A stretch of DNA of 64,000 nucleotides, taken from assembly GCA_040437565.1 (NCBI GenBank), contig JBDOQK010000006.1:62001-126000 (forward strand), read 5' to 3'. Origin of the DNA: Albugo candida (lineage: Eukaryota). A program made the translations under genes and the position numbers. Positions within the stretch are counted from its first letter, which is position 1. Each line of letters begins with the position of its first letter. Below the pieces are notes generated by a model. That model was given only the letters and a program-made list of their open reading frames with translations, was not told the DNA's origin and did no database searches. This document shows positions 7,582 to 61,720 of the stretch, in pieces.

Positions 7582-8336
7582 ATGGGATCCATCCGATTTG
7601 CGCTGTTTCAAGCGATTCTGTTCAGCGCAATTGCCGCGTGTTTGACGAGTGTATTTACGAATCCGTTGAAGCGAAATTGGGACGAGAAGGATTATGTGTT
7701 TGTGCTCGCAGTGTTCACGACAGTGTTTCTCGATCGCATGCGTTCCAAACGGATCGAAAGTATGGTTCAAAAAGCACATTACGAAAAGCGACGAGAAGCG
7801 GCTCTGCTGGAATTCAACGGAATGTATCATGGAGAAGCGATGCAAATTGGAAAGAATGCCACGACATGTGTTCTCTTCTTCGTACGGCGTCTCACTCGGA
7901 GACTCCATCGCTTACTCATTGGAATTCTGTAGGGCTCCTGGTGTCGTGCATCTCGGAAAGCATTACAAACGTTTGATTCCGTCCGAGCGACTGTATCGAA
8001 TGACATCCAATTTGTAGCTCTCACGCAAGAAACCCGCGAGGAATTGGAAATGTATTCCGTCAAAGGCGTTAACGCCGCGTACTTCAAAGATTTGCGAGAT
8101 TTTGACTTTACAATTGCGATGGAGGATGGACGAATGAGCAAAGAGTATCTCGTGCGCTTTGATCTCACAACGGTGCCGTATGTGTTTATCGTCGGGAGAA
8201 ATCGTATGATCGAATGGTACGGCCGCGTCGACGATAAAGCCTTCAAAGTACGTCATCTCCGTTGATGAGTTGGCAACGTGACAGAAACACTTTGTAGCAA
8301 ATGCTGGAAATGAATGCGTCGAATTCGTCTGCGTGA
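7582..8336 (+). CDS. Membrane-anchored thioredoxin-fold (TlpA/redoxin-like) protein with CxxS motif
   Basis: Splicing GT-AG intron 7882-7932 gives CVLFF-GSWCRAS...IQFVALTQE...VPYVFIVG (Trx active-site position and cis-Pro strand). Two N-terminal hydrophobic segments. Last intron ~8248-8297 and the 3' end are uncertain. Confidence 0.65.
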
Positions 8337-9464
8337 GCGCCGCGCCCAGAAGATACACAACGAAGCAAGTAGAAGAGAATGCTACGATAACGTGAAAGAG
8401 CTGATTACATCTTAGTACCGACCTCCATATCGTCGAAATCCGCCATCTGAATCGCCTCTTCCTCCTCGACCCGGTCCACGATCGCGAGAAAATGGAGCAC
8501 GACTCATATCTCTATCTCGNNNNNNNNNNNNNNNNNNNNNNNNNNNNNNNNNNNNNNNNNNNNNNNNNNNNNNNNNNNNNNNNNNNNNNNNNNNNNNNNN
8601 NNNNNNNNNNNNNNNNNNNAATTGGGACGAGAAGGATTATGTGTTTGTGCTCGCAGTGTTCACGACAGTGTTTCTCGATCGCATGCGTTCCAAACGGATC
8701 GAAAGTATGGTTCAAAAAGCACATTACGAAAAGCGACGAGAAGCGGCTCTGCTGGAATTCAACGGAATGTATCATGGAGAAGCGATGCAAATTGGAAAGA
8801 ATGCCACGACATGTGTTCTCTTCTTCGTACGGCGTCTCACTCGGAGACTCCATCGCTTACTCATTGGAATTCTGTAGGGCTCCTGGTGTCGTGCATCTCG
8901 GAAAGCATTACAAACGTTTGATTCCGTCCGAGCGACTGTATCGAATGACATCCAATTTGTAGCTCTCACGCAAGAAACCCGCGAGGAATTGGAAATGTAT
9001 TCCGTCAAAGGCGTTAACGCCGCGTACTTCAAAGATTTGCGAGATTTTGACTTTACAATTGCGATGGAGGATGGACGAATGAGCAAAGAGTATCTCGTGC
9101 GCTTTGATCTCACAACGGTGCCGTATGTGTTTATCGTCGGGAGAAATCGTATGATCGAATGGTACGGCCGCGTCGACGATAAAGCCTTCAAAGTACGTCA
9201 TCTCCGTTGATGAGTTGGCAACGTGACAGAAACACTTTGTAGCAAATGCTGGAAATGAATGCGTCGAATTCGTCTGCGTGAGCGCCGCGCCCAGAAGATA
9301 CACAACGAAGCAAGTAGAAGAGAATGCTACGATAACGTGAAAGAGCTGATTACATCTTAGTACCGACCTCCATATCGTCGAAATCCGCCATCTGAATCGC
9401 CTCTTCCTCCTCGACCCGGTCCACGATCGCGAGAAAATGGAGCACGACTCATATCTCTATCTCG
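7675..9464. repeat. 845-bp duplication across N gap (7675-8519 = 8620-9464); assembly artefact
   Basis: Sequence appears identical on either side of the 100-N gap 8520-8619, offset 945; the ORF track is duplicated. Confidence 0.9.
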
Positions 9465-24900: not shown

Positions 24901-25921
24901 TGTGTACCGAGACCTGAGGGTACCGCATCCATTTCACTTCATTATGCGCTTATTGATACGCCTTCACGAGAGTCAGTTGCTTCTCTTAAAAGAATCCAAA
25001 AGGATTGTGATCTGTGGTACGCTCACAGAATTCAATTTGTCGTACGTTCGCTGTCAGCGAGCGCACTGAGTGGCTTTTGTAACGCGATAATATAAAAAGA
25101 GTCATTTGATTGATTTCTTACAAACACTCTTTTTATTTTGTATTTTGTGGTTTGCATTTTGTACGGAATGAAAGAATTTGTGACAGGAAAAGTGGCAGAG
25201 AAATTGCGTGCGAAAGGATCGTTTTCATATCACTCGACAATGAAAACTTTCCATCGCGTGTTGAAGCTGTATGGAAAAAGTATTGTTCTGTGTATTTGGG
25301 AGCAAATAGAGACATTACATTTGTCAAATCGCAACGAAAAAGCAATTACACTTATTATGACACCACATATCGTCTTATTGGGTGTATTACTGCTGAAATG
25401 TATCGGAAATTCACACATGCAAGTGATGGTGAGGTTTTATACACAATGTATCGCTTTTTGACACGTTCGTTACAGTGTCGTGTTGGCATTGCATTGGTAT
25501 TGGTGTCGTCCACTTTATTTACAATCATTCACTCGGCACTTCGTCTCTATATGAATATCTGTTGCTGTATACCATCTCTTTGGTATGTATTGAGAGCTCT
25601 GCAGTGTGTAGGAACAGCACTTTATATGTGCACAAGTGTTCTGCCTTTAGCTCAGACGTCAGAGTCGCAATCGGTAAGCCACAAATTATGCAGCGATTTG
25701 ATTGCAAACTGGTAAGCAGGTGATAGTAAACCATATGCAACCTCACACAATCTTATTCGTGCAGCGAGATGGGCTTTTTACGCCGTCTGAGTCATTTTAT
25801 TGGCGCCATACTTTTCCTTGAGCTCATTTCAATACTTTTGCTGTGTGACGCAATTCGATCATGTCGGAGCTTTTATTTGAGACATATCCTCTCACAACAA
25901 ACATACAAATTTTCAGACTAA
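21941..25921 (+). CDS. Orphan glycoprotein: signal peptide, long N-glycosylated ectodomain, multi-pass TM C-terminus (multi-exon)
   Basis: MVFFSVTFLAIIFLSIQC signal; many N-x-S/T sequons; hydrophobic helices in the 25110-25900 exons. The 1042-aa ORF is inflated by 291 codons by the gap duplication. Joining of the 3' exons is inferred. Confidence 0.65.
23352..24997. repeat. 773-bp duplication across N gap (23352-24124 = 24225-24997); assembly artefact
   Basis: Apparently identical flanks of gap 24125-24224, offset 873. Confidence 0.9.
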
Positions 25922-29050: not shown

Positions 29051-32000
29051 TTAGTTGTGTTGTATGCAATTGATTGCAATTGTAATGCACGACACACATA
29101 AAACCATTGTGTTGAGACGCTGATGACATATTTCCTCTTCTTTCGCGCCACATAACACACAACTGCCCAATGATTTCTCAAATGGAAAACACATTTTTAT
29201 GAATTGTGTCCAAAGTGTTGCGTCATATTTTTTGATTTCAGCGCGAGAACAGTTGTATTTCGCTTGAATTTGATCGAATTTCATTTGAATGCTTTCGATG
29301 GATTCGGTATCGCCTTCGATTCGCTTTGTCGGCGTCACTGTCACCTCAACGCTTTCAGCTGTCTGCGACTTCTCATCCGATTCTCTCATCGTTTCGCTCT
29401 CCTTCTCATCCGATTCTTCGACTGCTTCACGCCCATTCTCCGACTTTCGAGTCGTTTCGTTGCTTTCAGTAAAAGCGTCCAATGCCGAAAGCGTCGGCTT
29501 CCTCGGGTCAATGTCAATCCCTAATTTGTGCGTGTGAGATCTCTCTGTTGCCATTCGCATTGAAAGCAATGGAGAAACTTTGTGCCACGTCAAATTGGAG
29601 AGATTCCCTTTGACACATAAGCGAACGAGTGATTGGATGCCACCAATGGATTTCGGTATGTGCGTAAGGAGATTTCCGCGAACATCCAAACACTTTAAAT
29701 TATGAAATTTCGTCCATGTGACATTGGAAATGTTCCACAAATTGTTATATGAGAAATCTGCTGTTTGTAGAGACGACAATTGACTCAAACTCGGTGGTAG
29801 CGCCAAAAGCGAATTGTTTGCGATATTGAGAGTCACAAGTCGATGCAAAAGTGAGATTTCTGACGGAAGTTCCACCAGAAAATTGTTTGAGAGTTGGAGT
29901 TCTTGCAAGTTGGCAAATGCAAAGAGAATTGTCGAGCGTGAAAGTGATGCAATTCCATCGATCGGTGAGACGTGCTTTTCGTCTGAATGTTTTGCGTCGA
30001 GTCCCGCGAGAGCAAAAGTGTCGACACAGACGCCTGCTTGTTGGATGCTCGTTACCAACGCCTTTGATCGATTGGAATCCTTCTTTCCCAGCATCATTTC
30101 AAGGCGGAAGACTAGTTCCCATAAGGCTTTACTATTTGTATGTCGATGTAAAACGTGTTGGAGTGCATTCCAATGCCATTCAGTGAGCGGAAGCTGTTGC
30201 TCCAATACGCTAATGAGAAACACTTTGATCACAGAACGACGAATTGACATGTTGGACGCATCGAAAAGAGACGTCGATACGATCAAACTCTTGTAACTCG
30301 CTGCAAAAGTCTGTTTCCAATCCCATTCGTTCTTCGCCAAATGAGCCATTCGGATACAAAATGCTGGTAAATGACCCAAAGGAGACGCGTATCGCGACAT
30401 GAAAGCCATGCGTTTACTCTGTGGAACGAGAGATAAAGTCATATCAAAGACTTTCCATAGCGAAATGAAAGTGCTCGGGACACGAAAAGTAAGTGCTTCC
30501 ACGACAATTGACTCGATTTTCGGCATTGTGTCTGCGTTCCAATTCTCCGAACTGATTCGCCGTGTGAGAATTTCCGATGTATTGACAGCTTCCGTGGAAA
30601 TGATATGCTGAAGGAATCGTTGCAGATCGCAGAGTACAGTGTCATTGGGAGCTTTGACGTCACTTGTTCGGACACTCAGATACTGGAGCCATATTCTCTC
30701 TTGTTGGGAGATCGATAGACGCGTAAATTGATCCGATTCGAGGAGTACGTTGAAGAGATCGCTTGCATCTACAAGAGAAGAGAAGCGTCGGAGCAGCAAA
30801 CACGCCGACAACGGGATGTATATATCGATTCCGAGTGAGCTTTCTGTATCGTAAAGCTTCTGCATCCACGCATTTGTGATATCGTGAAGGATCTGCTTGA
30901 TTTGATCGTTCTCAATCGTCGATGAGGTTTGGAAATTGTATCCAACAGCGACCGCAAACTTCTCCAAACACCTTTGTATCGAGCAATTTGACTGTAATGA
31001 GAATGGCTCATGCGAGTTCTCTTTAGATCCGATTGCGTTTGCTGTCGATAACAAATAGTAATAGAGATGCTGAATGAAATTTGCAGTGTCTTCGGAAGTC
31101 GTTTCGAGTGCTTTGGCGTTCAAATCGGTTCGATTTTCGATCGATAAATGAGTTTGTATCTCTTTGAGGATCCAACAGGCTCGCGGTGCATTACGCAAAG
31201 AAGCGTCATACTCACTACCGCGAGCGTCGATGCGATTTGCGTTGGCTTCAAAAAGCAATCGACAGGTCCACATGATGTTCCCATACGCAATGACGGACGC
31301 TTTCTCACAATTCTGAGCGTCTGCTTTCTCCAGCAGAGTACATCCACGTACAAATGCGCGCTCCATACGTTCTCTCACAGTCGGATCAATCAATTGGTGT
31401 CGCCAAAAAAGCTCGCGAGTGAATAAAAATTGCTCTATGACAAAGCCAAGTTGTTCGATATCCGCTACATGACAGCTTTGTACGTTTCGGAGTGTCAGAG
31501 ACGGAAGCTCATCGGTCAATAAGACGTGAATGTAAATGAGTGAGATGTAAAAGCGTTCGCGATGATGCAGAGCTTTGGATGCAGCAGGAAGCCACGATAA
31601 GATATCATTGTCGGATGTTTGAGTGTCTTCTTGTAGACAATTGAGAATCGAAAGCGCTGATTTTGATCTTCCCGAAGCGCAATATTGCGAGCAGAATTGT
31701 AAGATAATGTTTGTGATTGCAGCTGATCGCTCTGAATGATCGATAGAGTCATTGTTTCCATTCTCTTGACGCGATAAGAGGAAATGGAGGACGCGTGGGA
31801 ACAACGCCTCTGCGATTTGAATGGAACGAATCGGACTGATGGAAAGATAAAATAGCCACAAATGATAGGAAGACGGAAGGAATTGAAGAGCTTGTTCGGT
31901 CATTTCCAATAACTGATCGTCGTTTTCTTCAAGTTTTGCCGTATGACGAAAGAGATTGAGATACAGCAACCAAAGTGACTCGGAGAACGCTTTGCCATCA

Positions 32001-34197
32001 ACTTCCAATGCTTTTGACAATCGATTTAATGCAAATTCTTGACCACAAAGCGTTTCTGCATCGTTGAGACGGTTGCAACACAGTCGATGTAAAGCGATCA
32101 TTTGCATCGTTACAGTCTTTCCAGCATGCAAACACGCGCCATGTAACGTCAATGGAGAGTTGGATTCCGGCCATTCAATTGCTTGTAAAGCGTATAGAAT
32201 CCAAGCGTCTGCATCCTGTGGATCTTCCGAGACACGATGTTCCAATTGCGATAGTGTGATCATATGATTGTCGTTGGCCACAAAGTATCGAGAAGTGCTT
32301 TGTGAATTGCATACTTGTTCATTTGTGTCGTGTTTTGTTTCTAGAGCCAAATACTCTTCATTCCCAGCGGATTGCGTGTGTTCCGTCGGATCTTCCCGCT
32401 TTTCCACCGCTCTAACGCCTTCGTTTCTCATTGTTACAGCCTATTAAGCACATACCGTAATGAGAAATAGCAATTGAAAGAGAGGATTTCGTAAACCTGT
32501 GGAGCCAAAAGAACAAACTTTTCGGAGATACTTTCACGCAATTGGAAGAATGAGTCGAGTTCCATCATTGCCACTGGTGAGAGAAAGGAAAAGCTATCGG
32601 ATCCGTTTTGTGACTTGCTCTCTGACACATTTGAATCGCTGGCTGCTGAACGCTCGATATCTCCCTGGTGCTGGAATTCACAGTTTGTATCATTACAGAC
32701 TCCATTCAGCTCATAAAAACATAAAATTCTGTGCAGAAAGAATGTGAATGTGACGTTCTCCCATAGAAAAGACACAACTTCGTACTTCATTGGATCGATT
32801 CGCTCAGATCGCGGCTTTTTTGAATGCAATTGTAAAAGGACCGAATCTCTTTCTGGATCGAATGGCCGTTTGTATGTCTTGTAGTAATTCTCGATACATC
32901 TTAGCGACACTTGTTCGTTTCTGCAAGTAGCGGCATTCTCGTTGACAGTTGTTTTCGGGATTTGAGACGTTTGAGAATGGAGAGGAACGGATCGTTCAAG
33001 AGCCCAGGCGAATTCTAAAGGAGTTGCGTCCTCATGACAATCCATCCTGTCGCTGCCGAATTGCAAGTACGCTCTGAATAAACGCGTTTTTAGGTTTTCG
33101 TCGACGGATTCGGAACTCTTGAGAAAAATCATAAATCGCCAGCATCGACGCATTTGTATGATCTCTTCCGTTCTTTGATGCTGATCAAATGTGCCTTTTG
33201 TTGTGTGCTTTTTAATCCGTTGGAAGGCGCAAGCAATCTGATCGAGTTCTTCTTTACCGCTTTCGATGACATCTTGAAGATCTATTGGAGCGAGATATCA
33301 GTGTCAGTTTTGGCGTCTTCTGATCCCCACGCACCCAATTGAACTGTATCATCGCATGTCCTCTGTTGTGAGTGTCCGTGTTCTGCTACAATTCCCGCAT
33401 CCTCTCGGCCTTCAATCACCTGCAATCGCCTAAGACTCTGTTTTGCCGTTTTTTTCTCTTCCTGTGCGATCTGAATGTTTCCTTGAGGGCATTGATTCGC
33501 ACAAAACTCTAAAGCATTTGCCAATTGCTGCCATGTGAGTTTCTATAGGCGAATGGATCATTTTTCCACTATCCGAATACGAGCAAATAGAAGCGACTTT
33601 CTCACATTCCCAGTGAGCAGCAGGCTTCGAGTTGCTATACGATGTAATAGCGGAAACAGCAGAGTCGATTGTTGAGTGTCATCGCTCCAATTTATTAATT
33701 GTCCTTGCTTTACTTTGAGAATTGATATTTGTTAAATATCAAAAGGNNNNNNNNNNNNNNNNNNNNNNNNNNNNNNNNNNNNNNNNNNNNNNNNNNNNNN
33801 NNNNNNNNNNNNNNNNNNNNNNNNNNNNNNNNNNNNNNNNNNNNNNCATGAACGAATTAAATTGTGTCACATTTTTATTGTGCTGATCGATTTTGCGCTT
33901 TTTGGATCGATTTTCTGGGGATGTTTGTGGGTTGGTAGGATGAGAAATGGGTGTGTCGCTAATGTTAGGGCATACGTTTCCTTCTGGTCGCTCTGAGGTA
34001 CCATTTTCGTGAGAAATAACGTCATTGTGAATACCATTTCGCATGTTTGAGCATTTGAGTTGTGTGTGTCTCTCCTTTAGAGCTTTCTCACGCAATAAGA
34101 GACGTTTCCTTACGATTTCCAATTCATTTTTTTCGCTTTGAAGCTGTTGCAAACGCTCTTCCAGTTGCCTTTTGGAAAGATTTGCGTGCAGTATCAT
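29051..34197 (-). CDS. ZFC3H1/Red1-like protein: coiled coil, zf-C3H1, HAT-like repeats, plus C-terminal LRRs and CxxC pair
   Basis: IDPMK|ILCFYELNGVCNDTNCEFQH finger; HAT-like DAWILYA, SLWLLYL, HLWLFYL; LRRs LQELQLSNNFLVELP, LNIANNSL, LDVRGNLL; CVLC...CVSC. Multi-exon and spans gap 33747-33846; exon linkage is inferred. Confidence 0.7.
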
Positions 34198-36237: not shown

Positions 36238-39200
36238 CTAACTAACATTTCCCACACCACCAAGTTGATCCGGACATCGATACTCTTCAGGCAACAAAGA
36301 TCGCTGTAATTTATTAAAAGCAAATTGTCGTTTACCGGTATTTTTGAGCGCATTTTCGATCCGAACGCCATGACTTCGCATCACCGAAACAGTCGCAGGG
36401 ATACGATGTTCCGGTAAATCGTGATGTCGATGCAGAATACGCACTTGTTCTAACGTCACTGACATTGCTGTACGATCTTTTGCACTTTTACACACAGTCA
36501 CACGCCCTCCTCCAAGTTCGCGACATAAATCAGACGATTTTTGTAATATTTCGGGTCGTTTCGTCTTGACCAAACTCTGAGCAGCATCCAGTACATACGC
36601 TTCCAATGCGTGGAATTCCTGTGCGACTTGATCTTTTGTCAATTGTAGCGATAATTTAGATCCATTGCGATTCAATCGAGCGAATGAGTGCGTCGAATCC
36701 GATAACGCGACAGCCAAGCGACAGTATCGCTCACAATACGCGCGCAATGGCTTCAGATTATTCATATTGATCATATCTTGAAGCTCTGTTTTGGCTCGTT
36801 CCGTGTTATTCGCAATCGTTTGCATCTCATTGATTCCTTGTGTGAATAGAAGCGGAATCACTGAAATTTCTCCACCATTCGCTAGTCGTTCCGGTAATTC
36901 AACCAATCCTGTCACGACTTGCACGGTCACGACATATTTCATTGGATATTTTGCATCAGAAGACGGCTGTGAAGACACTTGAACTTTAACAATTCCCGCG
37001 TCTTCGTTCGGATCTTTGACACGTCTCGACACGCGAAAGGAAAACCGACCTGTTGGGCGATCGCGAACATCTTGGATCACAAACGATACACACGACAAAT
37101 TCGCGATGGCACCGGCCATATCTTCAATCATTCCAATCTCTTTTCCATGCGTTGAAAGTAGTGACTCTACTTGAAAGAGAAATCCCAATTTGGAAAGCAT
37201 ACGAAGCACATGAACACCTGCATCGGCGTCAAAACTCTGTATTGCAACTTCCACTTTCCGCACAAAACTCGCAGTCAATGCAGCCAATGCCTGCGCAAAG
37301 CAACAGTCCATACGAAGCTGTAAGTCCCACTGAAGGTCGTCATATTGCTGTAACTCTTCTGGCCATTTCGCTCGATCTAATTCCGAATGCGCCATTTTCT
37401 CTTGCATCTTTAAAAGTCGAGCTTGAAAAGACATAATTCCGCCCTTATTGAATTTGTAGCAATGTGCTGCAAACGCACCGACGGTCGTGAAATCGTACAC
37501 AGTGATATCTTTCGACGACCGTCGTTTTTCCTCATTCAAAAACGCACTTGTTGGACCAATGAGTAAATCTTGTATATGTAAATTGATTGGAACAAATCGT
37601 AAAGCTTCATTTTTCTTCTCCACACTCGCTTTAAAGTATTGTTTGTGTTTATCACGACCAACCAGTAGTTGTACATTCTTTCGGAGTGTTGAAACGTATT
37701 CTTTCCTTTTTTTCACACGATTTTCAAGCCATTCTTTAGACAATGCGGTATCGCCTTCATCCTGTATTTGACCAATCAGCGTCCCATAAAACCCTCGAGC
37801 TTGCTTGTCTTTTTTCTGATTCAAAAAGGATCTCAATTCTTCTCGAGCCTTTTCGGCTTGTTCCTGGCGCTGAACTGCGAGAATCTCCAGCAGCTGACGT
37901 GGAATACAATTGGCATACGTGCTTTCTTGCAGATCTTCGACCACAAGTCCACCAATACCGTCGTCTGAGTCGTATTGAAAGAACCGAATCAGATTTCCAA
38001 TTGATTTGTGCGCGAGCATATCGTCTTTTACGTGCACATCACCGGGCATCATCACTGTCTGAACACTCAATTCGGCATTTCGTTTATCGCCTTCCAGAAT
38101 AGCGTTCATTTCTTGGAGAAGCTTATTGTCTTTGCCCATTACATTCGATAAATTTTCATCGTGAGGATACACGTGAAGCGGTTGACTGCTGGCGGCTGCG
38201 TCCAAGACTGCTTGTGACGATGTGACAAATTCCAATACGGGCTGAAACAATGTCATTTCGTACGAAACAGCGTCTTTTGTATCCATTGAATTCACATCTG
38301 ATTCCAAATAATCAGCTGAAAGACTGGAAGTCTCGAGTCTTTTCTTCCGACTTTGAATGGTGCTCGCATGAACCATGAAATGGAGTAACGTATTGGATGC
38401 TGGACCGACCACAGGAACTTCGAGAACAGCCACAAATGGAAACACTGCATGTTGTTGTGTTTGTGCACTCACACGTTCAGTGCTTCCCACGCAAATCCAA
38501 GGCACATTCTGCTCAATAGTTTGAAGTGATATTGAAGCCGGTAAAGGACGTCGCGATGTGAAGAAATCCAATGATACAAAACACGTGCGATCGAATTCTG
38601 CGGGTAATTTAACTCGAACAATAAGACGGAGTTTGGTGCTGGGATCATCGCTTCCTAAAATCGATTCGGAGATACTTAATCGATTGGATTGAAGTTTGGC
38701 GTAATGATGCGTGTTTGGCGATGCGACTGACGAGCGTGGGGTGAGATTGAATACGTCGGCTTTGACAGATATACGTGCGACCGAATTACGAGTCTCATTA
38801 TGTATTGCTTCAGTTTGTGGATTCCATTGTAAGAAAAGCAATAGTAAAGGTGGTAATCCTTGTGGTAGCCAGCTGATGAATATGTACCACACTACATCCG
38901 ATAATTCGCTATGTTCGCCTTGAAACGAGACGTATTGAGCGATGTAAATGACTTGTGCGGATATGTATAGTACACATGTGGTTGCGATGATACTGTAGAA
39001 GATAGCCAATGACTTTCGGATTTGCGACTCGGAGGGATCCTCATTTAGCATTAAATGACGACCACGACTCATAACCATACATCCTAGAATCATGAGTAAG
39101 ACAGTGTACACAATAAAACCAGCGCCGAGTAAAAGATAGAAAAACTGCATTTGGCACTGGATGACACTTTGTCGAACGGTTTTACCACCGGCAGCCAATG

Positions 39201-41146
39201 GAATTTGACATTCTTCCACTGAATCACAACGTAATGTTTCAATATCGTAGACACAGTATAGTTTGTCGTGAATCATGCCCATGGTTACAATCAAACATGC
39301 AAGGATAACGCCATTTACGATAAAATAAGCGAGTACCACCGGTGATTTGATGGTAAGTTTCTTAAATCCTCGGAAAGATAACACGGTTGCCCTACAAAGT
39401 AAATGTGAGTAATGAGTTAAAAAAAGTGTGAACGCATGTACCAGTGAAAGCATAATGATAGAATCATAACCGTATTGAAAAAGTATTGAGCCGCAAACCA
39501 GTAAACATAAAGTTTAGATGGTTGTATAACCCACAATAGTGAGCCCGCACACGCGACCGCAAAAGAGAAAAGCGCTGATATCGCAACCATATCGGTCCAT
39601 AACGTCGACATGGTGAGGGGTAACCCATGCTGTAATTCCTTATTAGTAAAATACAATACGGTAAAAAATGGTGTCTGCGTACCCATTTGATAATAACCAA
39701 AGACGATAAAAAGCAAAACCCATACACGACGATGGAGATTACATCTAATGGTGAGATCTTGATTGCTCGTTGTGCTACATAACAGTCATGAGGTCTATAT
39801 TCATACCGCACCTAGCTGGTTCCTTACCTTTATTCACAGAAAAAAATGGAAATGCCGTGTTATCGACAGCCAAACTCAGACCTTGATATGCAGCCAAATA
39901 CACCGTATCGATCTGATCGAATTGCTTGCTGGGATTCATAAAGTGTTTAAATTGTATCTTCAGACGATCGCCATTGTCTATGGATATATTTTGTTGAGTG
40001 GGAATCGTAAAACTGATATTTGCGTAGCCAACTCGCAAGTCCAAATCTACCGATTGTATCGATTTTTGGGCTGGAAAAAATAGAGTCGCACTATCGATTG
40101 AACGAATTAGCGGGGAAAACGTACTTTCCAGATTCTGAGCTACCCGAAGAAGGAAAAAGGCCCCGGGATATAAACTTGAACCACTACGAAACGATAACGA
40201 GATGGTTGTGGGTCGCATCATTTCCAAATTATCAGCAATAACTTTGACGTTTGTGAAGGTTCCAATTAGTTTATAGGAGGAAGACGTCAATGTGATTTGA
40301 AATGCTTGCTTGGCTGCTGGCATCTTTGATTGTAATGTATCAAAACACCCAACTCCTTGAAATTTGAAAACCAATTGATTTTGCTCGGAAAAACTTCCAG
40401 GATTGGAACGTGTGGAAATCGATTTGACTTGGAAATTGTATTGCTGCCTTGATTCAATCAAAAGGCGGAGAGCGTCCATGCTCATGGTAAATGTGGATAC
40501 ATTGTTTCCGTACACACAAGGCACATTCACGGAGCCAATGGAGCACGTGACCTCGGTATCTGTCGGTCCCCACTGTGACGGCATATCAAGCGCAATAGAC
40601 GAGTCGAAAACGCAACTACTTTGTCGTAAGGAATCATACGTAAGATCCAGATCGGAAAATAGACGTGGGAAATTGTATTTAGTGGTGGCGGTCAATGCGC
40701 AATGACGACAGGTTCCATTGGCCGACGAATCGATCTCCATCGAAGGCAAATCACTCAAAGTGAAGCCGAGACTCTGAATGTGCGATATGCCACAAGCATT
40801 TATACAGGAAGAAATATCAGTGAATTGTGGTTTTTTGGGTGTGTACACACATTTGGATTCCTCACAATGGTAACCAAATGTGTCCTGCATTTCAATTGGA
40901 GGGATATATCCAATGAGAAAGGTTGCTAGTAAAATAAGGCCAATGNNNNNNNNNNNNNNNNNNNNNNNNNNNNNNNNNNNNNNNNNNNNNNNNNNNNNNN
41001 NNNNNNNNNNNNNNNNNNNNNNNNNNNNNNNNNNNNNNNNNNNNNAGAAAGGTTGCTAGTAAAATAAGGCCAATGGGAAGTTGAGTGCGATGATAACGTC
41101 GTCGTGCGATTTTGGTAGGAACGCAAGACTGAGTCCCACTGTTCAT
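36238..41146 (-). CDS. GPCR-INPP fusion: N-terminal anchor/signal, ~370-aa ectodomain, 7TM, C2-like region, inositol polyphosphate 4-phosphatase domain
   Basis: Catalytic CKSAKDRT motif. Seven TM helices emerge after splicing three GT-AG introns at ~39.4-39.8 kb. Removing the 30-bp gap duplication joins ATG 41146 in frame to ORF 39775-40890. Confidence 0.85.
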
Positions 41147-41820
41147 TTCTATAGACGACCATGCGTGGAAAATGAGATAAAAATGTAACCTGAATGCTTC
41201 GATGTAACCATTCTGTAAATGACTCCATAACGAACATGTAATATTCGATAAAAGCATTCTTGTTTGCTTATGTGTAAAGAGTGGAGCACGTGAAGGTCCT
41301 TGACGCACACGGCGAGTATATTTCGTTGCTGACTGTAGCGTTCCGAGTATGTGATTTAGTCGTCTCTGTAAATCTGAATTTGATTATGTAGACTCCGTGT
41401 GGAGGAATAGAGACACAGCAGATGGGGGAGCGACTGGAGTTTTCACTCTGGAATTCAATAGGTTTTTGAATTAGTAATGCGCAAATTGTCTTTTTTTATA
41501 AATCACTATCCTTCCGTCGGTATTAAAAGAGATAGAGCTATCGCAGTCACAAATAATCATCTTATACAGCGCCAACCCTAGTTGCCACTTTCGCTCTATT
41601 GTCTGCACGTTGTTACCTTTCCCTACCGCTCCATGGAGACTAGGGTCTGTAAGTAGTGTGTAGCTCACTACACACATNNNNNNNNNNNNNNNNNNNNNNN
41701 NNNNNNNNNNNNNNNNNNNNNNNNNNNNNNNNNNNNNNNNNNNNNNNNNNNNNNNNNNNNNNNNNNNNNNNNNNNNNCATAATTCGAAATCGGTATGGTA
41801 CGTGTTTTATTCCTTCGTTT

Positions 41821-43401: not shown

Positions 43402-45030
43402 CTAAGCGGAATCTGATTTCTCATCCACTTTTCGACATAACGCGGTCATTTCCTGCGTGCTTTTACTAACGTATCCGGGACACAGCATCCGACTTGCATC
43501 GGCTTTCGACACGGCGTTTTCTTTTTCTCCCCAAAGTTTTTCATGAATACAAATTTCTTTCAAATAAAGACGCAGTGAGCGAATTCGATCCGATATGACG
43601 TTTCCTTCCGTTTTGATATTTCCCGCAGACAGTTTATCCGATCGGTTATCAGAGTCGCTACTGAAAGCGCTTTTCGACTTTGTTTCTATTCGCTCTTTGT
43701 CACTCAACCAGTTCTGACTATGAAGCACCATACACATCAAAATAACGGGAAGGTACCACAACGAGCACATAAACACTTTATGTGCCGTTGCGTTTGTTGG
43801 GTTTTGTGCAAACTTTCGAGCCAAATGGATAGCATATGCGTTGATAAGCGTTCCTTCGACCGCAAACATACAACTGGTGGCGTCTAAGAGGTATGCAGCC
43901 ACGGGAATAGGAAGAAGATACAGAGAGTATCGAAGCGCGATTGCCGATGTGCGTGCGCCAGTTGGGTCCGCGCAAGGAATCATTTTGTAGCCTCCACGTG
44001 CATAATCCTTTCGCGATTTCCAACTCAGTGCGAAGAAATGAGGCATTTGCCAACAAAATAACAATGAAGCTTGAAGGGCAGCTTCTACACTCAACACAGA
44101 GCCCGTTGCCGCTGCCCAGCCCATCACTGGAGGCACAGCGCCGACGATCGACCCGATCCAAGTATTCCATTCTGTCCGTACTTTAGAAGGTGTATACACG
44201 AGTGTATACAGTCCTATGTTGAAGAGACCCAAGGTAGCTGTTGGGAAGTTACACCCAAGCCCGAGAAGAATCGTACTTATTGCGGCGGTGGACGACCCGA
44301 ATGCAATGGCATGGCGATGCGAGATTGCTCGAAGTGGTAAGGGACGCTTACATGTTCTTTTCATCTTGGCGTCTAGATCAGATTCCATCACTTGGTTGAA
44401 TGTGTTGGCAGAGATCGCAGCGAGACCGGTCCCCAGTGATAAAGAAGCGAAGGAAACCCATGAGACTGGACCACCCGCCATCAGAAACCCGGCACCAGAA
44501 GACATCACAACCAACGCACTAAGACGTACTTTACCGAGTTGGTTGTACACACCAATTTGATGCTTTGTCCTTGTTTTCCAGTCGGATGNNNNNNNNNNNN
44601 NNNNNNNNNNNNNNNNNNNNNNNNNNNNNNNNNNNNNNNNNNNNNNNNNNNNNNNNNNNNNNNNNNNNNNNNNNNNNNNNNNNNNNNNATCAGATTCCAT
44701 CACTTGGTTGAATGTGTTGGCAGAGATCGCAGCGAGACCGGTCCCCAGTGATAAAGAAGCGAAGGAAACCCATGAGACTGGACCACCCGCCATCAGAAAC
44801 CCGGCACCAGAAGACATCACAACCAACGCACTAAGACGTACTTTACCGAGTTGGTTGTACACACCAATTTGATGCTTTGTCCTTGTTTTCCAGTCGGATG
44901 ATTCTACCACCTGAGTTTTTACATGATCGAGCACTGGAAGACTGCTCTGATATCGAGCGTAGTTTGTGTAGAGTGAAGTATACCGAATAAAGGCTCTAGA
45001 CTCCATGCAAACAAGACGGTGAATTTGCAT
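43402..45030 (-). CDS. COX10: Protoheme IX farnesyltransferase (heme O synthase)
   Basis: ANTFNQVME.DLDAKMKRT.KRPLP, LYTLVYTP.K, WQMPHF..L, DYARGGY. Contains an artefactual 212-bp duplication across gap 44589-44688; start codon uncertain. Confidence 0.95.
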   Translation of the reverse strand: MQIHRLVCMESRAFIRYTSLYTNYARYQSSLPVLDHVKTQVVESSDWKTRTKHQIGVYNQLGKVRLSALVVMSSGAGFLMAGGPVSWVSFASLSLGTGLAAISANTFNQVMESDXXXXXXXXXXXXXXXXXXXXXXXXXXXXXXXXXXSDWKTRTKHQIGVYNQLGKVRLSALVVMSSGAGFLMAGGPVSWVSFASLSLGTGLAAISANTFNQVMESDLDAKMKRTCKRPLPLRAISHRHAIAFGSSTAAISTILLGLGCNFPTATLGLFNIGLYTLVYTPSKVRTEWNTWIGSIVGAVPPVMGWAAATGSVLSVEAALQASLLFCWQMPHFFALSWKSRKDYARGGYKMIPCADPTGARTSAIALRYSLYLLPIPVAAYLLDATSCMFAVEGTLINAYAIHLARKFAQNPTNATAHKVFMCSLWYLPVILMCMVLHSQNWLSDKERIETKSKSAFSSDSDNRSDKLSAGNIKTEGNVISDRIRSLRLYLKEICIHEKLWGEKENAVSKADASRMLCPGYVSKSTQEMTALCRKVDEKSDSA

Positions 45031-45157
45031 CCGATTGCGTAATTTCGCACAAACTCGTACAGTTTTGTTCTGGCTCAATCCACTAAATTTATGTGGATCA
45101 CAATAGAACGACAGAAAGCCTCGCATCGTGTGCATCACATCATAATATTTTCCGTTC

Positions 45158-45760
45158 ATGAGTCTTCGGGTACAACGCAACCAATTTAGATCGAAATGTC
45201 CCTCTCATTCTTTAGCATTAATTACATTTCTATTCATATCATTCTTTTTATCGACATTCTTCTCAATGCTTTGTTCGAATATGAGGCAGTATTTATAAAT
45301 GCGTCGACTCTCCTTTCAAAGTAACTATTCGCTCTCTTTGTGTCCCTCGCTTATCGCATACACAGTTTTCAGGTTTTTGTACAGCTATATGGCCTCGTGA
45401 CTATTTTATTATTAATCGGAACAACGCGGAATTTCCAAATCGGTGCGTGGAGAAAAGTATCCCGTCAATTTCGAGGAGCGATCATTGCAAATGTCAGTTA
45501 TGTTCTCATCACGATGGCACTGGTATACAACGAAATAAATGCAAACTATGTTCGTAACGTAACGTCCTTGCAGCATGTTATAACGCATAGGAAATACGAG
45601 CATTTCTTATTGCGGCTCGCAATCTCATTGGCACAAAAAGCAAGTAAGAATCTCATAAACCAATCAAAAAACCAGTCTCATGATCAGCAGTGTCTCTATT
45701 GTATTACACTTGTAGCATGAACACGTTGACACAATGCCAATCAAGATGAATTTCAAAAAT
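45158..45760 (+). CDS. TMEM138-like small multi-pass membrane protein, multi-exon
   Basis: DILLNALFE...TTRNFQIG.W..V.RQFRGAII..VSY...Q..SLLYY pattern resembles TMEM138 as recalled; ends approximate. Confidence 0.45.
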
Positions 45761-56185: not shown

Positions 56186-56376
56186 GCAGCGCATAATATA
56201 ATTTCACTCAGAAATTTGTGAGGTTTATGTATTGTATTACTGCATTTTTTCAACAACTCGGGTATCATTAGCAGTGCCAACGAATCAAAAAATGCACCGA
56301 CTTTCTACAAATTGTAAACTGCAATTGTACTTTTAAATAATAAGATGGAATGTTTTCGCAAAGGCTTTCGAAATCT

Positions 56377-58151
56377 TTAGCGTTTGACGTGATAAGATAC
56401 TGGACGTGAAGGTCTCCTGCTATGTTTGATCCAAACCCTCCTACCGTTGTGGTCACTACGCGCTGCATGAGACAGACTCTTGTTCGTCTCACAGACATCT
56501 TCCTCTTCGTCACTCATTTCTTGAGCGATCGCATGCCGACGGGATGTCCTTGTTTGCTGTACCACACAATTCAAGTCGTCCACAAAATCTCTACTTCGTT
56601 TTCGGTTTCTAAATTGCATATCATTTTGATCCGCAGTTGCTTCTATCTCATTAGTATCTGTAGATGTTTGTTGTGGCATAGCCTTCGCTAAGCTGCTATA
56701 CAAATCAGCTATGTCATAATAGCTTTTGTATGGGCTTCGTTCGTGTAAACGAGCCAGTAGTGCTTGCGCAGCCAATTGCTTGGAGATACGTTTGGTTGAG
56801 CCCACTCCCTTCACAGCAACAATGAGCATTTGCATACGGTTCAATGCGCACAACGGGTACCTCGCCCGCTTTTTTTCCACAGGATGCGACTGTTTTGAAG
56901 CTATTGCATCCATTCTTTTCCGTCATCAGCGTATTGTAAACCACCGAGATGCCTCGATTCCGATTCTGATATTCTTGCAGTACTTGTGCGGGCGTTCGTA
57001 TCGATAATGCGAGGCAAGCCTAGAGTCAACTGTCAATGTGTATGAAATCGAGACGAGTTATCTTACGTACAGAAAGAACACGATCGTCCGACATTGACAA
57101 CTGCTTGAAGTCTTCGAGACTCTACGAGAGCGCATGAGAACATGAACCTACGTGCTTTTTCAATGACTCAAACCATCGACTTGGAATCCATTCCATATGA
57201 CATCATTTGATCGGTATAATCGACGCTTTTCTCGCATGCATTGGTGTCCTTCTTCACCAAAAGCTTTTGGAAATCGGGAATTCTATCCAACTGTTAGCAA
57301 TGTATTGTAGGATGAGAGCATGAACGAGAGTGATGTACAATTTCTTGAGCGCAGACTCCACCGCCGCTTCTCTTGCCAGAACCTTGGATGGTCGGCTTTC
57401 CATCGAGTACCGTTTCTCGTGCACGTAAATCGCACACGTGACTGGATTTATTAGATCTATAGTACACATCAAGAATCACTTCCTGAAATCGATTCAACTG
57501 ATTGACCTCACCATCATTCTTGGAAAACTCGTAGCGAGGGGTGCATCGTAACGCCGCTACTATATAATCCTACAGAAAACGATGTAAACAAAGTATACAA
57601 GTTACAAAATGGGCAGCCAACCCGAAGCAGCGCTTTTGCTGATTTTCCTTCTGGATTCTCAATTCGAACGCCATTTACAAGAATTGTGTTGAAGACATCA
57701 ATAGTCTCATGAAGTTTTCCAATTCCCACGATGCGCTTGATGCTCTAAAGTGAGGTAAGTAACATAGTTATACGGATGGCAATGCTGCTAATGTGCTGAT
57801 AAGTACTGATTCGCTGGTAGGAAGAAGAGTGTGGTCGAAATGCGAATGTTTATGAGTCTCATAAACTTCATTTTCATTGCAAGAGCGAAATATATTTAGA
57901 GGAGGCAAATGTGAGCGAGCAAATGCGTCGAAATCGGCCTCTGAATTGCAGCTTCCAATGCGATACGGTCGAGACCAACAGACGACTTTGGTCTTTTCAT
58001 GAACAAAAAATCGAATTCCGGAATCATGAAGCATCTCCACCCATCCTTCAGGTAGCACAGAGTCATATTCGCTGCATTCTGATGTATCTGTTGATAGTTT
58101 ATGTCCCTCAGAAGCGCTCAAAGCCACCGTCGTATCATTCACGTTATTCAT
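56377..58151 (-). CDS. DGCR8: DGCR8/Pasha-like protein: WW-containing module plus two dsRNA-binding domains, multi-exon
   Basis: LPEGW..LHDSG..FVH....VV.WSRPY...HLPPL; IENPEGKS..LL; K.LA...A..AL..LIPDF; LEDF..LS..D.RV; TPAQVLQEY..RN.G; CGK....G...KRISKQLAAQ.LL..LH. Segments join through GT-AG introns. Confidence 0.8.
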
Positions 58152-59092
58152 TGTGGTTCCAGTAAACAATTATGTGAGGCACCTTATTATAGAGGAGGCG
58201 TTGATTGGGTGCGACTCTTTGTCGATCTTTCCAATCAAATATGACATAGCTAATGGTGATATTTGGACGCTTAATGACAGACAGCTTTTCTGACAAGTGT
58301 TAATGAATGCATGCTTCCGAATTGTCGCTTATAGAGAAGCGGTACGACATAGGTATTTTGTCATCCCAGTAGCTGTAAAGATGTGAAAAGCAGATGGAAA
58401 TGCAATACTAGTGAAACTGAACATGCGGGAACGGCTACCAAAGCGCGGTATACGTTGACGCGACAGTATCTAGAATTCTATTCCGACAATCCACGATATT
58501 GCATATAATAAGAATCGGTAAGTGTACTGTGCACTGATTGGAACGCAAAGGTCTTTTGATAATGGTATGAAAGCGGCATTTCAGAAAAGCCTGTTCATGT
58601 AGTATTACCACCGGCAACCTTCGAAACATGATTGAACATTAACTCAGCGAGAAAGCAGTGTTTGTCGATGATTTTACAGCGAAAACGCCACAGTGATGCT
58701 TGCACCAAATTCTCAATTTAATATTATTTGTTAAAGTCTATTGATTGTACCGGTACACTGAATTTCCCCAAGCAAACGAAATATACTCAGCATCTCAAAG
58801 CCTCTAACACTTTCTCAGTAAAGTCCCTTATGAAATAGGTCAACAATCACACCACGAGCAACACCAACGTTATAAACTCGCAAACAAATAAAACTGCCAA
58901 TCTGATTGACAGAATGAGACAAGATCGAATATACATCAATGTGTCACGTGGTTGATGTGCGAATTATCGCCAGCCACATAACTATCTGTTAAGAGGTCAT
59001 GCACAATCCCAATAATGCGGTTCCATCATCGCAATCCAAAAATACCCTGATGGCGGTTTATTAGATGGGTTGAAAAACATTCCTGAAACCAA

Positions 59093-60097
59093 ATGGCCTC
59101 GGCAGATGACGAGAAGAACGACAGCATTTCTGTCAATATTGCAAAAGTGATTCTAATGCTGCTCAATATGGCAATTGTAGTCATTGGCTCGCTAATTGTT
59201 CATTTCAGCCACCGAATCAAAGCTTCCGGGTGGCTGGACGCACTTAGCGAGGAGTATGATTGGATCACTCGCACCACATTCATGGTTCTTCTCGCGTTTG
59301 GTATCACACTGATTGTGATTGGAACTGTTGGGTGTGCAGGCGCGTGGTTACAGCGCCGCTGGATACTCACAATTTACGGCTTTCTGTTAATTCTCGCACT
59401 TGTCTTCTTCGTCCTCATTGGTGTTGTGAGTGGTGTCATCAAATTGAAATATACAACAATCAATCAAAATAAATCGGATCAAGTTTCAGATCCGGAGATT
59501 GGAAACAAATTCAATGAATTGTATTGCTACGGACAAATCCCATACTATTGTCAGGACGCAAAGATTGTCGATGCACTCGATACATTCAATCTCTCGTCAT
59601 TTGCATCGTCTGTTTCTAAAACTGCGACCAATATCTCATCTCTCTGTGATTTCGATGGCATTTCTTTAACGAATCAGATGGAACAAATGTGCACAGTCTG
59701 TCGGATGGCGCGTCAAAACCAACATTTTCGGCCAGTATTCGATTGGTTTGAGCGCGAGTGCCCACGCACGTCATCAAAGATGCAGTGGTGCTACAATTTT
59801 CTCCAAAGAGAAAATGTGGGCGATGAAATTGACAAGCGAGAGAATGCACCATTTCGACAGTGCAGAGACCGATTGTATCATTTCATATCCAGTTGGAGCA
59901 GTGGGATTCTCATTGCAAGTATCATTGTTTGCTTCTTGATACTCTCTGTTCTCGCATCTGCTTGCCTCATCCGCCGCAAAACAAGCAAAGACATTTGGGA
60001 TGAATTTTCAGGTCAGTCAAAAGGCTACCCGGAGGAAGTAAACGGTTCATACAATCAAATTCGGCCTCCTACAAATCCTAAATCAGTCTGCTTTTAG
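59093..60097 (+). CDS. Tetraspanin-like protein
   Basis: Three N-terminal TMs with GC.GA in TM2, Cys-rich large extracellular loop, fourth TM near the C-terminus. Confidence 0.75.
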   Translation: MASADDEKNDSISVNIAKVILMLLNMAIVVIGSLIVHFSHRIKASGWLDALSEEYDWITRTTFMVLLAFGITLIVIGTVGCAGAWLQRRWILTIYGFLLILALVFFVLIGVVSGVIKLKYTTINQNKSDQVSDPEIGNKFNELYCYGQIPYYCQDAKIVDALDTFNLSSFASSVSKTATNISSLCDFDGISLTNQMEQMCTVCRMARQNQHFRPVFDWFERECPRTSSKMQWCYNFLQRENVGDEIDKRENAPFRQCRDRLYHFISSWSSGILIASIIVCFLILSVLASACLIRRKTSKDIWDEFSGQSKGYPEEVNGSYNQIRPPTNPKSVCF

Positions 60098-60178: not shown

Positions 60179-61720
60179 TCAAACGCGCAGTTGATTTGGT
60201 GTGGACGTGCATTTGTAATCGGGCTGTGAAGAGTTCGCGTTTTCTTCAAAAGTGAAAAATAGCGGTTCAATGTCTTCCAATAAAAGTCCTTTTGTCTCGG
60301 GACAAAACAGATAGACGAATACGAAGCAAACCAATGACAGAAATCCAAACAGATAAAACACTCCATTGACGTTCAAGTACGAGAATAATTTGGCCACAGC
60401 GATCATAGCGGAACCAGCCAGCCAATTCGACATGGTTGATAAAGTGACTGCTTTGGCGCGGACATTCGTTGGAAATATCTCTGCCGGATAGATCCAACAG
60501 ACCGGACCCCACGAAATTGCAAAATTGAATATGAATATGGATGTGAATATGATCATAACGTACCCAGCCCAGACGGAGCAATTGGAACTCGTTGTGTTCC
60601 CATTACAGCCATACGTGAATGTGATTGCGGATACTAAATGACCTACAGCCATCCCTATTGCCCCGATGAGCAATAAACGACGACGACCGACCCTATCAAC
60701 CCAGTACATTCCGGGAAATGTGCTTAGCCAAAATACGATTGACAGAATGAGCAATGATAACACACCATTTCCAGATACATCGCGAAAGATTTCACCACCA
60801 TACAAAAGAACTGGGTTGATGCCAGTAGCTTGTTGTAAGCCCTGAAGTGACATTGCAATCAGCGTTCTCCGTAAGAGGGAACTATCCAGCCACAAGGTCG
60901 ACCAAGTCACTGGTTTGCTTTCCATCTTCAGCTGATCACCAATCGCATCCAATTCCTTGTCAACATGCTCCGTTTGTCTCAGTCGCTTGAGAACCGTACG
61001 TGCCTCTCCTCTTCCCTTCACTTGATACGTCCATCTTGGACTCTCTGGAACGGTGAAAATTCCAATCATAACAATGAAAGATGGTATGAGTGCGACTGCA
61101 TTCGTGATTCGCCATCCGTATGTGGAACTAGCGACCAAATTATTGACAATGTTGGACAATAACATCCCAGTAGTATTCATGGCTTGCATCGATCCAGAGA
61201 GGATACCGCGTAGTTCTTTCGGAGCTGCTTCAGCCCCAAAAATTGGCAACGAAAACGATGAATTTCCGACACCTGCTCCCGCAAAAAATCGTCCCATCAG
61301 CACAAGTGCATGCTGTTTTGGAGGTGTCAGGCATACCCATAACGTGCCAGTGGTGAATAAACAACCCGCATTGAAGATGGTCACGCGTCTTCCATATCGT
61401 TGGGCGATATAGCCACCAATATACGCCCCAACAATGCATCCAATGTAGTACACAACATTATAAAGCGTTGTGAACGTCGTCCAGTTCTCAGGCATGTTAC
61501 GACTCGAACTCGTGCAGTCCTTATACGTATTGTGCTCGTAACCCACACAAAAATCGAACAGGAAATTATCCATTACGATAACACCGCCAGTTACTCCTTG
61601 ATCATACCCAAAAAACATTCCACCTAAAGACGCAAATATGCAGACAGCGATTGCATAAGTGCGTGTTCCTTGGGTCTCCTCCGTCACGGTAGCCGTGGGT
61701 ATGGAGACACCGACAGCCAT
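60179..61720 (-). CDS. MFS sugar porter (hexose transporter)
   Basis: GGMFFGYDQG, YGRR, PESPRW, QQATGIN, VDRVGRR, SWGPVCWIYPAEIFP, PETKG. Confidence 0.95.
   Translation of the reverse strand: MAVGVSIPTATVTEETQGTRTYAIAVCIFASLGGMFFGYDQGVTGGVIVMDNFLFDFCVGYEHNTYKDCTSSSRNMPENWTTFTTLYNVVYYIGCIVGAYIGGYIAQRYGRRVTIFNAGCLFTTGTLWVCLTPPKQHALVLMGRFFAGAGVGNSSFSLPIFGAEAAPKELRGILSGSMQAMNTTGMLLSNIVNNLVASSTYGWRITNAVALIPSFIVMIGIFTVPESPRWTYQVKGRGEARTVLKRLRQTEHVDKELDAIGDQLKMESKPVTWSTLWLDSSLLRRTLIAMSLQGLQQATGINPVLLYGGEIFRDVSGNGVLSLLILSIVFWLSTFPGMYWVDRVGRRRLLLIGAIGMAVGHLVSAITFTYGCNGNTTSSNCSVWAGYVMIIFTSIFIFNFAISWGPVCWIYPAEIFPTNVRAKAVTLSTMSNWLAGSAMIAVAKLFSYLNVNGVFYLFGFLSLVCFVFVYLFCPETKGLLLEDIEPLFFTFEENANSSQPDYKCTSTPNQLRV

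Follow-up and report, generated by a model that had tools for sequence, protein, structure and literature searches.

The window analysed here is a stretch of 64,000 nucleotides (nt) of Albugo candida DNA (GenBank assembly GCA_040437565.1, contig JBDOQK010000006.1, positions 62,001 to 126,000 of the forward strand), and positions 56377-58151 of its minus strand carry one gene, described below as DGCR8/Pasha-like. The gene consists of eight exons and seven GT-AG introns, and its exons form a single open frame of 464 codons running from the ATG at 58151 to the stop codon at 56379-56377. Six-frame translation placed the encoded peptides in three frames, and they were joined at GT-AG sites; the resulting splice model agrees with seven exon joints found in public sequencing runs X1 and X2 (see below). 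A preliminary description, made from the letters alone, had proposed a gene hidden in about eight small exons at this place. The eight exons were recovered with all seven joints seen in contigs, and every peptide quoted in that description is contained in the spliced product, namely the WW stretch, SHLPPLNIFRSC, IENPEGKSAKALL, a segment ending in LKKLIPDF, SLEDFKQLSMSDDRVLS, TPAQVLQEYQNRNRG and a segment ending in KRISKQLAAQALLARLH.

Exon 1 (57807-58151, amino acids (aa) 1-115) encodes a short N-terminal leader, a WW module and a conserved H.PPL..IF stretch, and it matched Pfam WW and DGCR8 dimerisation domains in PDB. The WW module itself (aa 33-63, LPEGW...WSRPY, 57963-58055) was placed by Pfam, PDB and alignment, and it is followed by the post-WW stretch SHLPPLNIFRSC (aa 80-91, 57879-57914), the equivalent of H..PL..IPC in insect Pasha with the Cys displaced. 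The first double-stranded RNA-binding domain (dsRBD1) begins in exon 2 (57622-57744, aa 116-156) with NPEGKS..., continues through exon 3 (57512-57569, aa 157-176) and has its second half in exon 4 (57339-57456, aa 176-215), while the linker between the two dsRBDs occupies exon 5 (57174-57282, aa 215-251). Exon 6 (57071-57121, aa 252-268) encodes the conserved linker motif SLEDFKQLSMSDDRVLS, which lines up with L..F..I.I.D.RV in insect Pasha and with every oomycete member, exon 7 (56861-57019, aa 269-321) the first two thirds of dsRBD2, and exon 8 (56377-56808) the remainder of the protein. Exons 2-5, 7 and 8 rest on the splice model and the contig joints, to which alignment adds for exons 2, 4 and 7. 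The introns, all GT..AG, lie at 57745-57806 (intron 1, 62 nt), 57570-57621 (intron 2, 52 nt), 57457-57511 (intron 3, 55 nt), 57283-57338 (intron 4, 56 nt), 57122-57173 (intron 5, 52 nt), 57020-57070 (intron 6, 51 nt) and 56809-56860 (intron 7, 52 nt). An alternative acceptor for intron 3 was ruled out by the contig joint 57456/57512. In the spliced product, dsRBD1 spans aa 145-219 (57270-57657, exons 2-5), is collinear with dsRBD1 of insect DGCR8/Pasha and has a LIPDF motif at its end as in DGCR8. Insect comparison and alignment placed dsRBD2 at aa 277-343 (56743-56995, exons 7-8, TPAQVLQEY ... KRISKQLAAQALLARLH). A C-terminal helix past dsRBD2 (aa 346-363, SPYKSYYDIADLYSSLAK, 56683-56736) fits the W/Y..L..LY helix of DGCR8 in the HMMER alignment to DGCR8 structures 2yt4/6lxd and in the family alignment, and the remaining C-terminal tail (aa 364-464, 56380-56682) was weakly conserved in the alignment, with a basic cluster, RNRKRSR, at 56590-56613. 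With seven introns in 1.8 kb the gene is unusually intron-rich for its context, where many neighbours are single open reading frames (ORFs) of at least 1000 aa (for example 36238-39513, 29051-32440 and 4436-7510).

Public contigs from four runs (X1, X2, X5 and X8) were placed on positions 56200-58350; for X1, X2 and X5 the library type was guessed (possibly RNA), and X8 is DNA-like. One 8209-nt contig of run X1 skipped all seven introns exactly at the predicted borders (CT..AC on the plus strand) and was colinear with the window into both flanks of the gene. Run X2 also skipped seven of seven introns, in joints spread over several contigs, and contained unspliced pieces over introns 4 and 6 as well. 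Run X8 covered the whole stretch unspliced in one piece, and the partial coverage of the stretch by X5 included no joints. The preliminary description had considered that the WW exon and the dsRBD exons might belong to different genes; both were found on one spliced X1 contig, which excludes this. The joined form in X1 and X2 is unlikely to be an intron-less DNA allele, because X2 has joined and unjoined pieces together; with the X1 contig running into both flanks, complementary DNA (cDNA) of a compact genome fits better. Although the contigs have no power to prove cDNA origin, the gene is a real, spliced and transcribed one, and its observation is confirmed. Compared with the window, the related Albugo-type runs X1, X2 and X8 differed by four amino-acid changes in the first 25 codons (N2I, V4M, T23I and E25A) and by Y97H, all in exon 1 (57863-58147). 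Inside the conserved blocks, differences between runs were synonymous only (F74 and A206), at very few sites, too few for a selection test.

Pfam WW was detected in exon 1 at aa 33-62 (7e-07; 29.6 bits against a cut-off of 26.9). When exon 1 was compared with all solved structures, the best single-stretch matches were the dimerisation domains of frog and human DGCR8, over aa 32-69 (4e5r, 3.8e-9; 3le4, 1.7e-8; 39.9 and 37.8 bits), and the top match by summed score was NEDD4L, whose total came from four weak WW matches of 9-12 bits each. Residues L33, P34, G36, W37, H42, S44, W59, P62 and Y63 were invariant in 17 of 17 N-terminal homologues, as were H81, P83 and F88 of the post-WW stretch in the 17 aligned sequences. 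In an AlphaFold2 monomer model of exon 1, the predicted local distance difference test (pLDDT) score was 89-94 over the WW and the following helix, and Foldseek with this model returned 3LE4 and 4E5R first, but weakly (E 0.023). By these comparisons the WW belongs to the dimerisation-domain type of DGCR8 and is not a generic WW that binds PPxY. Two copies of aa 22-110 were predicted to form a homodimer with an ipSAE of 0.46, versus 0.01 for the best of three controls, a contact agreement of at least 72% between runs and a partner pLDDT of at least 58, thereby passing a mark that 21 of 30 solved homodimers and none of 23 solved monomers had attained. At the predicted interface, the last WW strand (residues 54-67) of each copy pairs symmetrically with that of the other. 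As the DGCR8 dimerisation domain has already been solved, this pass may be model memory and shows likeness only.

The spliced product aligned with insect DGCR8/Pasha at 92-101 bits. The match falls into two collinear blocks, aa ~29-100 and aa ~143-345/363, of which the second, the dsRBD block, scored 48-68 bits. The proposal that the WW module, both dsRBDs and the linker match DGCR8 in order is borne out by these blocks, and the human DGCR8 strings given with it agree with the human and frog DGCR8 chains printed by HMMER; the human IPC motif was absent from those outputs, and insect Pasha shows SSIPCL. The motifs in common with insect Pasha extend outside the generic domain cores. They comprise H..PL..I following the WW, NP.GKS where dsRBD1 starts, LIP following dsRBD1, L..F..I.I.D.RV in the linker, K(R/K)..KQ.A.Q..L..LH in dsRBD2 and then an aromatic-..L..LY helix. 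With exon 8 as query, only two PDB matches at E<=10 were obtained, both DGCR8 chains (E 0.99 and 1.2) and both running from the end of dsRBD2 into the following helix; Pfam dsrm gave 0.11 for dsRBD2, under the cut-off, and exon 7 alone had no match in PDB. In the AlphaFold model of the Achlya orthologue, pLDDT was ~90 over residues 150-375, and the equivalent C-terminal helix lies at 361-375.

Family membership was approached by three routes, through single exons of the window, through oomycete orthologues and through the spliced product compared with insect DGCR8/Pasha, together with structure and PDB tests on exon 1 and the orthologues. A full HMMER scan of 1.84 billion representative sequences with exon 1 gave 468 matches; multi-WW proteins dominated the 150 listed of these, and a set of single-stretch matches covered the WW plus the next 30 residues. 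Twenty single-stretch matches were looked up, and seven were from oomycetes (Bremia, Globisporangium, four Phytophthora species and Achlya), one was a sand-fly Pasha-like protein and 12 were without a name. Further searches added Saprolegnia, Thraustotheca and three Aphanomyces species as sources of orthologues. Alignment A1 retrieved five matches, all from Saprolegniales, in a search that covered 8000 candidates, probably taken up largely by low-complexity tail words, and alignment A2, built from trimmed cores plus one sand-fly sequence, retrieved 309, with four oomycetes among the 120 listed and the rest insect DGCR8/Pasha or unnamed; because the A2 profile included an insect sequence, this search only fetched sequences, is no independent test and has no power to reveal other eukaryotic lineages. 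A homologue search with exon 1 produced 59 candidates, none at E<=0.001.

The spliced product matched the oomycete orthologues at 126-193 bits over the WW block and the dsRBD block, and the orthologues in turn pointed to DGCR8. In PDB, the Achlya orthologue matched human DGCR8 at 1.7e-21 with DGCR8 in the top six places, and the Globisporangium orthologue matched DGCR8 at 7.5e-17 with DGCR8 in the top five. A profile of ten sequences, all from oomycetes, matched DGCR8 at 6.3e-40 (141 bits; 1.4e-28 for the DGCR8 core 2yt4), and the top six of its 35 matches were all DGCR8. The best other dsRBD protein was Staufen (5.1e-8, 36 bits), more than 100 bits under DGCR8; TRBP, PACT, HYL1 and Loqs reached 14-26 bits, and PKR and DRB4 were likewise under Staufen. 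With Atlas features of Achlya residues 1-380, the top three clusters were DGCR8/partner of drosha at 0.90, and other dsRBD families were at 0.76 or lower. Foldseek with the Achlya model placed DGCR8 chains in the top seven positions, followed by the Dicer partners Loqs and TRBP (6.6e-07 to 2e-06). The preliminary description had allowed that the best matches might turn out to be non-Pasha dsRBD proteins; instead, DGCR8/Pasha leads in the PDB, profile and Atlas comparisons. Homology to DGCR8/Pasha is thus well supported by sequence comparison, and the 464-aa protein very probably belongs to this family.

A tree was calculated from 19 rows, comprising the window sequence, ten oomycetes and, as sole outgroup, eight insects picked from more than 110 so as to cover their range; the chimeric P0131 and any further model of a species already included were left out. 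With this outgroup the tree bears on history within the oomycetes and not on the relation of the family to holozoan Pasha. Support was 100* for the oomycetes, 95* for Saprolegniales and 97* for the window sequence plus Peronosporales s.l., and the inner order equals the accepted species tree. The window sequence branches between Saprolegniales and Globisporangium/Bremia/Phytophthora, the expected place of Albugo, on the longest end branch in the tree (0.82 versus a median of 0.2). On this topology, the family has been passed down vertically from an ancestor shared by Saprolegniales, Albuginales and Peronosporales. The layout varies within the oomycetes. Four of six Saprolegniales proteins (P0126, P0155, P0156 and P0162) continue for more than 150 disordered residues to a conserved C-terminal end, ..QLK(S/A)(E/D)L(R/Q)K(S/T)L.., which was predicted helical in the Achlya model (residues 574-585, pLDDT 62-66) and which the window protein does not have; by eye it resembles the ILDKLK.EM.KL tail helix of insects, but a hidden Markov model (HMM) test gave no support. 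In the fragment P0090 (269 aa), a basic stretch and the start of dsRBD1 are both present. It ends in ...SPEGKSVHAFLRV, where read-through of the intron-2 donor of the window (57622/57621) gives ...ALLRV, which suggests that the position of this intron is conserved and that the gene model of P0090 is truncated.

Taken as a whole, the data are best explained, with a probability that we put at about 0.6, by a DGCR8/Pasha-family protein that serves as a cofactor of an RNase III enzyme in small-RNA biogenesis, with the Drosha-like DCL2 as prime candidate. The Albugo protein would most likely dimerise through its WW region, and the dimer would bind stem-loop or long double-stranded RNA by its dsRBDs and act as the RNA-recognition cofactor of the enzyme. 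For oomycete DCL2, Drosha has been reported as the closest protein by BLASTP, with DCL2 in a basal position in the Drosha cluster (Bollmann 2016, PMC4791657; Piombo 2023, PMC10080066), and each oomycete examined had one Drosha-like DCL2, except L. giganteum, which had two (PMC10080066). The claim that oomycetes carry a Drosha-like DCL2 is qualified in print, where the basal clustering with Drosha is reported together with a PAZ domain and a Dicer-like function is argued (PMC4791657). The parts of the proposal differ in strength. A function as RNase III cofactor in small-RNA biogenesis is somewhat favoured and a Microprocessor-like function is plausible, while a true nuclear cropping complex of the Drosha-Pasha type, in which the Albugo Pasha-like protein and DCL2 would process hairpin precursors, is a tentative and rather doubtful extension.

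Several observations weigh against this explanation. The Cys in the IPC(L) motif after the WW is the heme ligand of DGCR8. In the MAFFT alignment, the Cys of the window sequence (...NIFRSC) is one column off the insect IPC Cys, and none of the 16 other N-terminal homologues has a Cys at the aligned position, so that among the 17 sequences only that of the window has it, displaced; in Saprolegniales, GCG occurs two to three places further on. The altered Cys (IFRSC) had been pointed out in the preliminary description, and conserved heme ligation appears unlikely. The C-terminal tail helix of DGCR8 binds Drosha. An HMM of the insect C-terminal tail, whose motif was present in 112 of 115 sequences, gave no match to the window product, and its scores in other oomycetes, -1.2 to -5, fell among those of 1100 shuffled controls (90th percentile, -1.2); the earlier impression that no Drosha-binding tail is evident thus held. 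With neither the Cys motif nor the Drosha-binding tail conserved, the protein probably does not sense heme, and any partnership with DCL2 would use contacts other than those of animal Drosha-DGCR8. The dsRBD exons of the window were singly below Pfam and PDB significance because the domains are split across exons. Foldseek TM-scores to the DGCR8 core were low (TMt 0.33-0.43) and give no support for DGCR8-specific packing of the two dsRBDs. All four aligned annotated models from Peronosporales/Pythiales (P0081, P0087, P0151/P0139 and P0153, from Bremia, Globisporangium and Phytophthora) are without dsRBD1, and in them a KKRKLD-type basic stretch connects the WW region directly to the linker and dsRBD2; this reflects either real loss or a common annotation miss. 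Finally, the PAZ domain of DCL2 was taken to argue for Dicer-like over Drosha-like function, and both RNase III domains of Albugo laibachii DCL2 are reported to deviate from the consensus of the catalytic motifs (Bollmann 2016, PMC4791657).

Among other explanations, the likeness might be convergence, an unrelated WW having been fused by chance to generic dsRBDs with no common ancestry with DGCR8/Pasha. WW and dsRBD are both common and mobile domains, and NEDD4L was the top PDB match of exon 1 by summed score, but that sum consists of four matches of 9-12 bits, whereas DGCR8 reaches 38-40 bits with one WW. The likeness moreover reaches beyond the domains, to the H.PPL..I stretch, the LIP that follows dsRBD1, the motif in the linker and the post-dsRBD2 helix, and the family profile gave E 6.3e-40 to DGCR8 versus 5e-8 for the next family. 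Convergence is thus extremely improbable and already close to refuted. The gene might also be a retained relic in functional drift, perhaps left by an early gene transfer from a holozoan, that is expressed but stands outside small-RNA biogenesis. This would agree with the longest end branch in the tree (0.82 versus a median of 0.2), the divergent C-terminal tail and the four amino-acid changes in the first 25 codons among related runs. Against drift, the frame is open through eight exons with seven introns correctly spliced, 17 of 17 sequences keep the same WW core residues, differences between runs within the domains (A206 and F74, very few sites) are synonymous only, and the family is kept in three oomycete orders with a species-tree topology, and we consider a relic improbable.

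A more serious competitor is a DGCR8-family protein that has lost, or never had, a Drosha-type enzyme as partner and is instead a general dsRNA-binding cofactor of the canonical Dicer-like DCL1, in the manner of HYL1, TRBP or Loquacious, or acts in rRNA/snoRNA processing, antiviral sensing or RNA localisation. The missing signal for a Drosha-binding tail, the non-conserved heme Cys and the single dsRBD of the Peronosporales models would all suit such a role, as would Loqs and TRBP being the next structural matches after DGCR8 (6.6e-07 to 2e-06). The more Dicer-like character of DCL2 with its PAZ domain and the altered catalytic motifs in A. laibachii (PMC4791657) point in the same direction. 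The layout specific to DGCR8, with the WW/dimerisation module, the linker motif and the post-dsRBD2 helix, is nevertheless kept across oomycete orders; Dicer partners are without a WW and score 100 bits lower against the family profile, and a Drosha-like DCL2 is present once in each oomycete examined and twice in L. giganteum (PMC10080066). A role apart from a Drosha-type enzyme is therefore a real but less probable possibility, and cofactor function with an RNase III enzyme, DCL2 being the prime candidate, is preferred.

The gene neighbours of the DGCR8/Pasha-like gene are ordinary housekeeping genes. A proteasomal AAA ATPase gene on the plus strand ends at 56185 and is convergent with it, and genes for a tetraspanin (59087-60097) and a hexose transporter (60179-61720) were also found. 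The hexose transporter and the methionine aminopeptidase of the window fall into clusters of at least 90% identity with named proteins of Albugo candida and Albugo laibachii. The host is accordingly, by sequence, an Albugo-type oomycete; these clusters and the tree position of the window sequence agree with the oomycete origin assumed in the preliminary description. Elsewhere in the window, a 1129-aa ORF on the minus strand (29054-32440) showed a sub-threshold match to Pfam NRDE-2 ('necessary for RNA interference'; 6.2e-06, 26 bits, with the cut-off at 34) and additionally matches to HAT-repeat and a C-terminal leucine-rich repeat (LRR), and it may encode a nuclear factor of RNA interference or RNA surveillance fused to LRRs. 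An intact 1024-aa ORF on the plus strand (4436-7507) encodes a BED zinc finger together with a hAT dimerisation domain and corresponds to a hAT-type transposase, active or domesticated. The window contains 700 N, and its N runs are bordered by duplicated sequence (7963-8511 and 8908-9456; 21863-25069, 39775-41383 and 43402-45204), with identical 182-aa ORFs on both sides of one N gap and repeated protein segments around other gaps; these duplications probably arose during assembly, where scaffolds were joined.

The Microprocessor (Drosha plus Pasha/DGCR8) has been treated as an animal, at most a holozoan, innovation. According to Brate et al. 2018 (PMC6206976), Pasha was on record from animals and Ichthyosporea only, and from elsewhere just a Drosha-like RNase III 'but no Pasha'; a 2026 paper on Plasmodiophora described a Drosha-like enzyme without Pasha, with no occurrence of DGCR8 in its accessible text. 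Neither Pasha nor DGCR8 occurs in the accessible text of Bollmann 2016 (PMC4791657), Piombo 2023 (PMC10080066) or a 2026 paper on P. capsici, and no description of an oomycete or stramenopile DGCR8/Pasha was found in the main text of openly available papers; those that name the terms do so, judged by title and abstract, in unrelated contexts. InterPro or PANTHER could already group oomycete proteins with DGCR8. In public records, the orthologues bear generic names ('hypothetical', 'WW domain-containing' and 'DRBM domain-containing'), and none of the protein collections searched yielded a protein with the Albugo first exon. A clear Pasha-family protein in all three oomycete orders sampled, together with the DCL2 already in print, makes the origin of the Microprocessor directly testable. 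If a Pasha-like protein and DCL2 do form a Microprocessor, the Drosha-Pasha pair would not be a holozoan invention; it would either predate the split of the animal and stramenopile lineages, with many later losses, or reflect gene transfer between a holozoan and the ancestor of oomycetes. Oomycete small-RNA research, a field that matters for major pathogens of plants and fish, gains an unstudied candidate cofactor.

Among known systems, DCL2 is a separate protein of the same lineage, encoded outside the window, and a candidate partner, which the accessible text of PMC4791657 and PMC10080066 does not link to a Pasha-like cofactor. The Dicer partners (HYL1/DRB4, TRBP, PACT, Loquacious and R2D2) are RNase III cofactors with at least two dsRBDs and were the next-best structural matches after DGCR8; unlike the Albugo protein, they lack a WW module, the DGCR8 linker and the helix that follows dsRBD2. 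The Albugo protein does not fit this class of tandem dsRBDs without a WW, as it has a WW and as its family profile scored 14-26 bits to Dicer partners versus 141 bits to DGCR8. Ichthyosporean Pasha, which is also non-animal, has two dsRBDs and, in some species, a WW, and was identified by best matches to animal Pasha, the same kind of evidence as used here (Brate et al. 2018, PMC6206976); Ichthyosporea, however, are holozoans, sister lineages of animals with a clear Drosha, whereas oomycetes are stramenopiles. Animal DGCR8/Pasha (PDB 3LE4, 4E5R, 2YT4, 6V5B, 6LXD and 9ASM) has the same order of parts as the Albugo protein: the WW/dimerisation module, H..PL..I, dsRBD1 with LIP(D/Q), the linker, dsRBD2 and the helix. 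Animal DGCR8 dimerises via its WW region, and for Albugo a WW homodimer is predicted. The Albugo protein has 31 residues before the WW, versus more than 100 in insect Pasha, a much shorter stretch between WW and dsRBD1 than animal DGCR8/Pasha, and neither the IPC Cys nor a match to the C-terminal tail of the animal proteins. By this comparison of sequences, the Albugo protein is a lineage-unexpected and structurally trimmed variant of DGCR8/Pasha.

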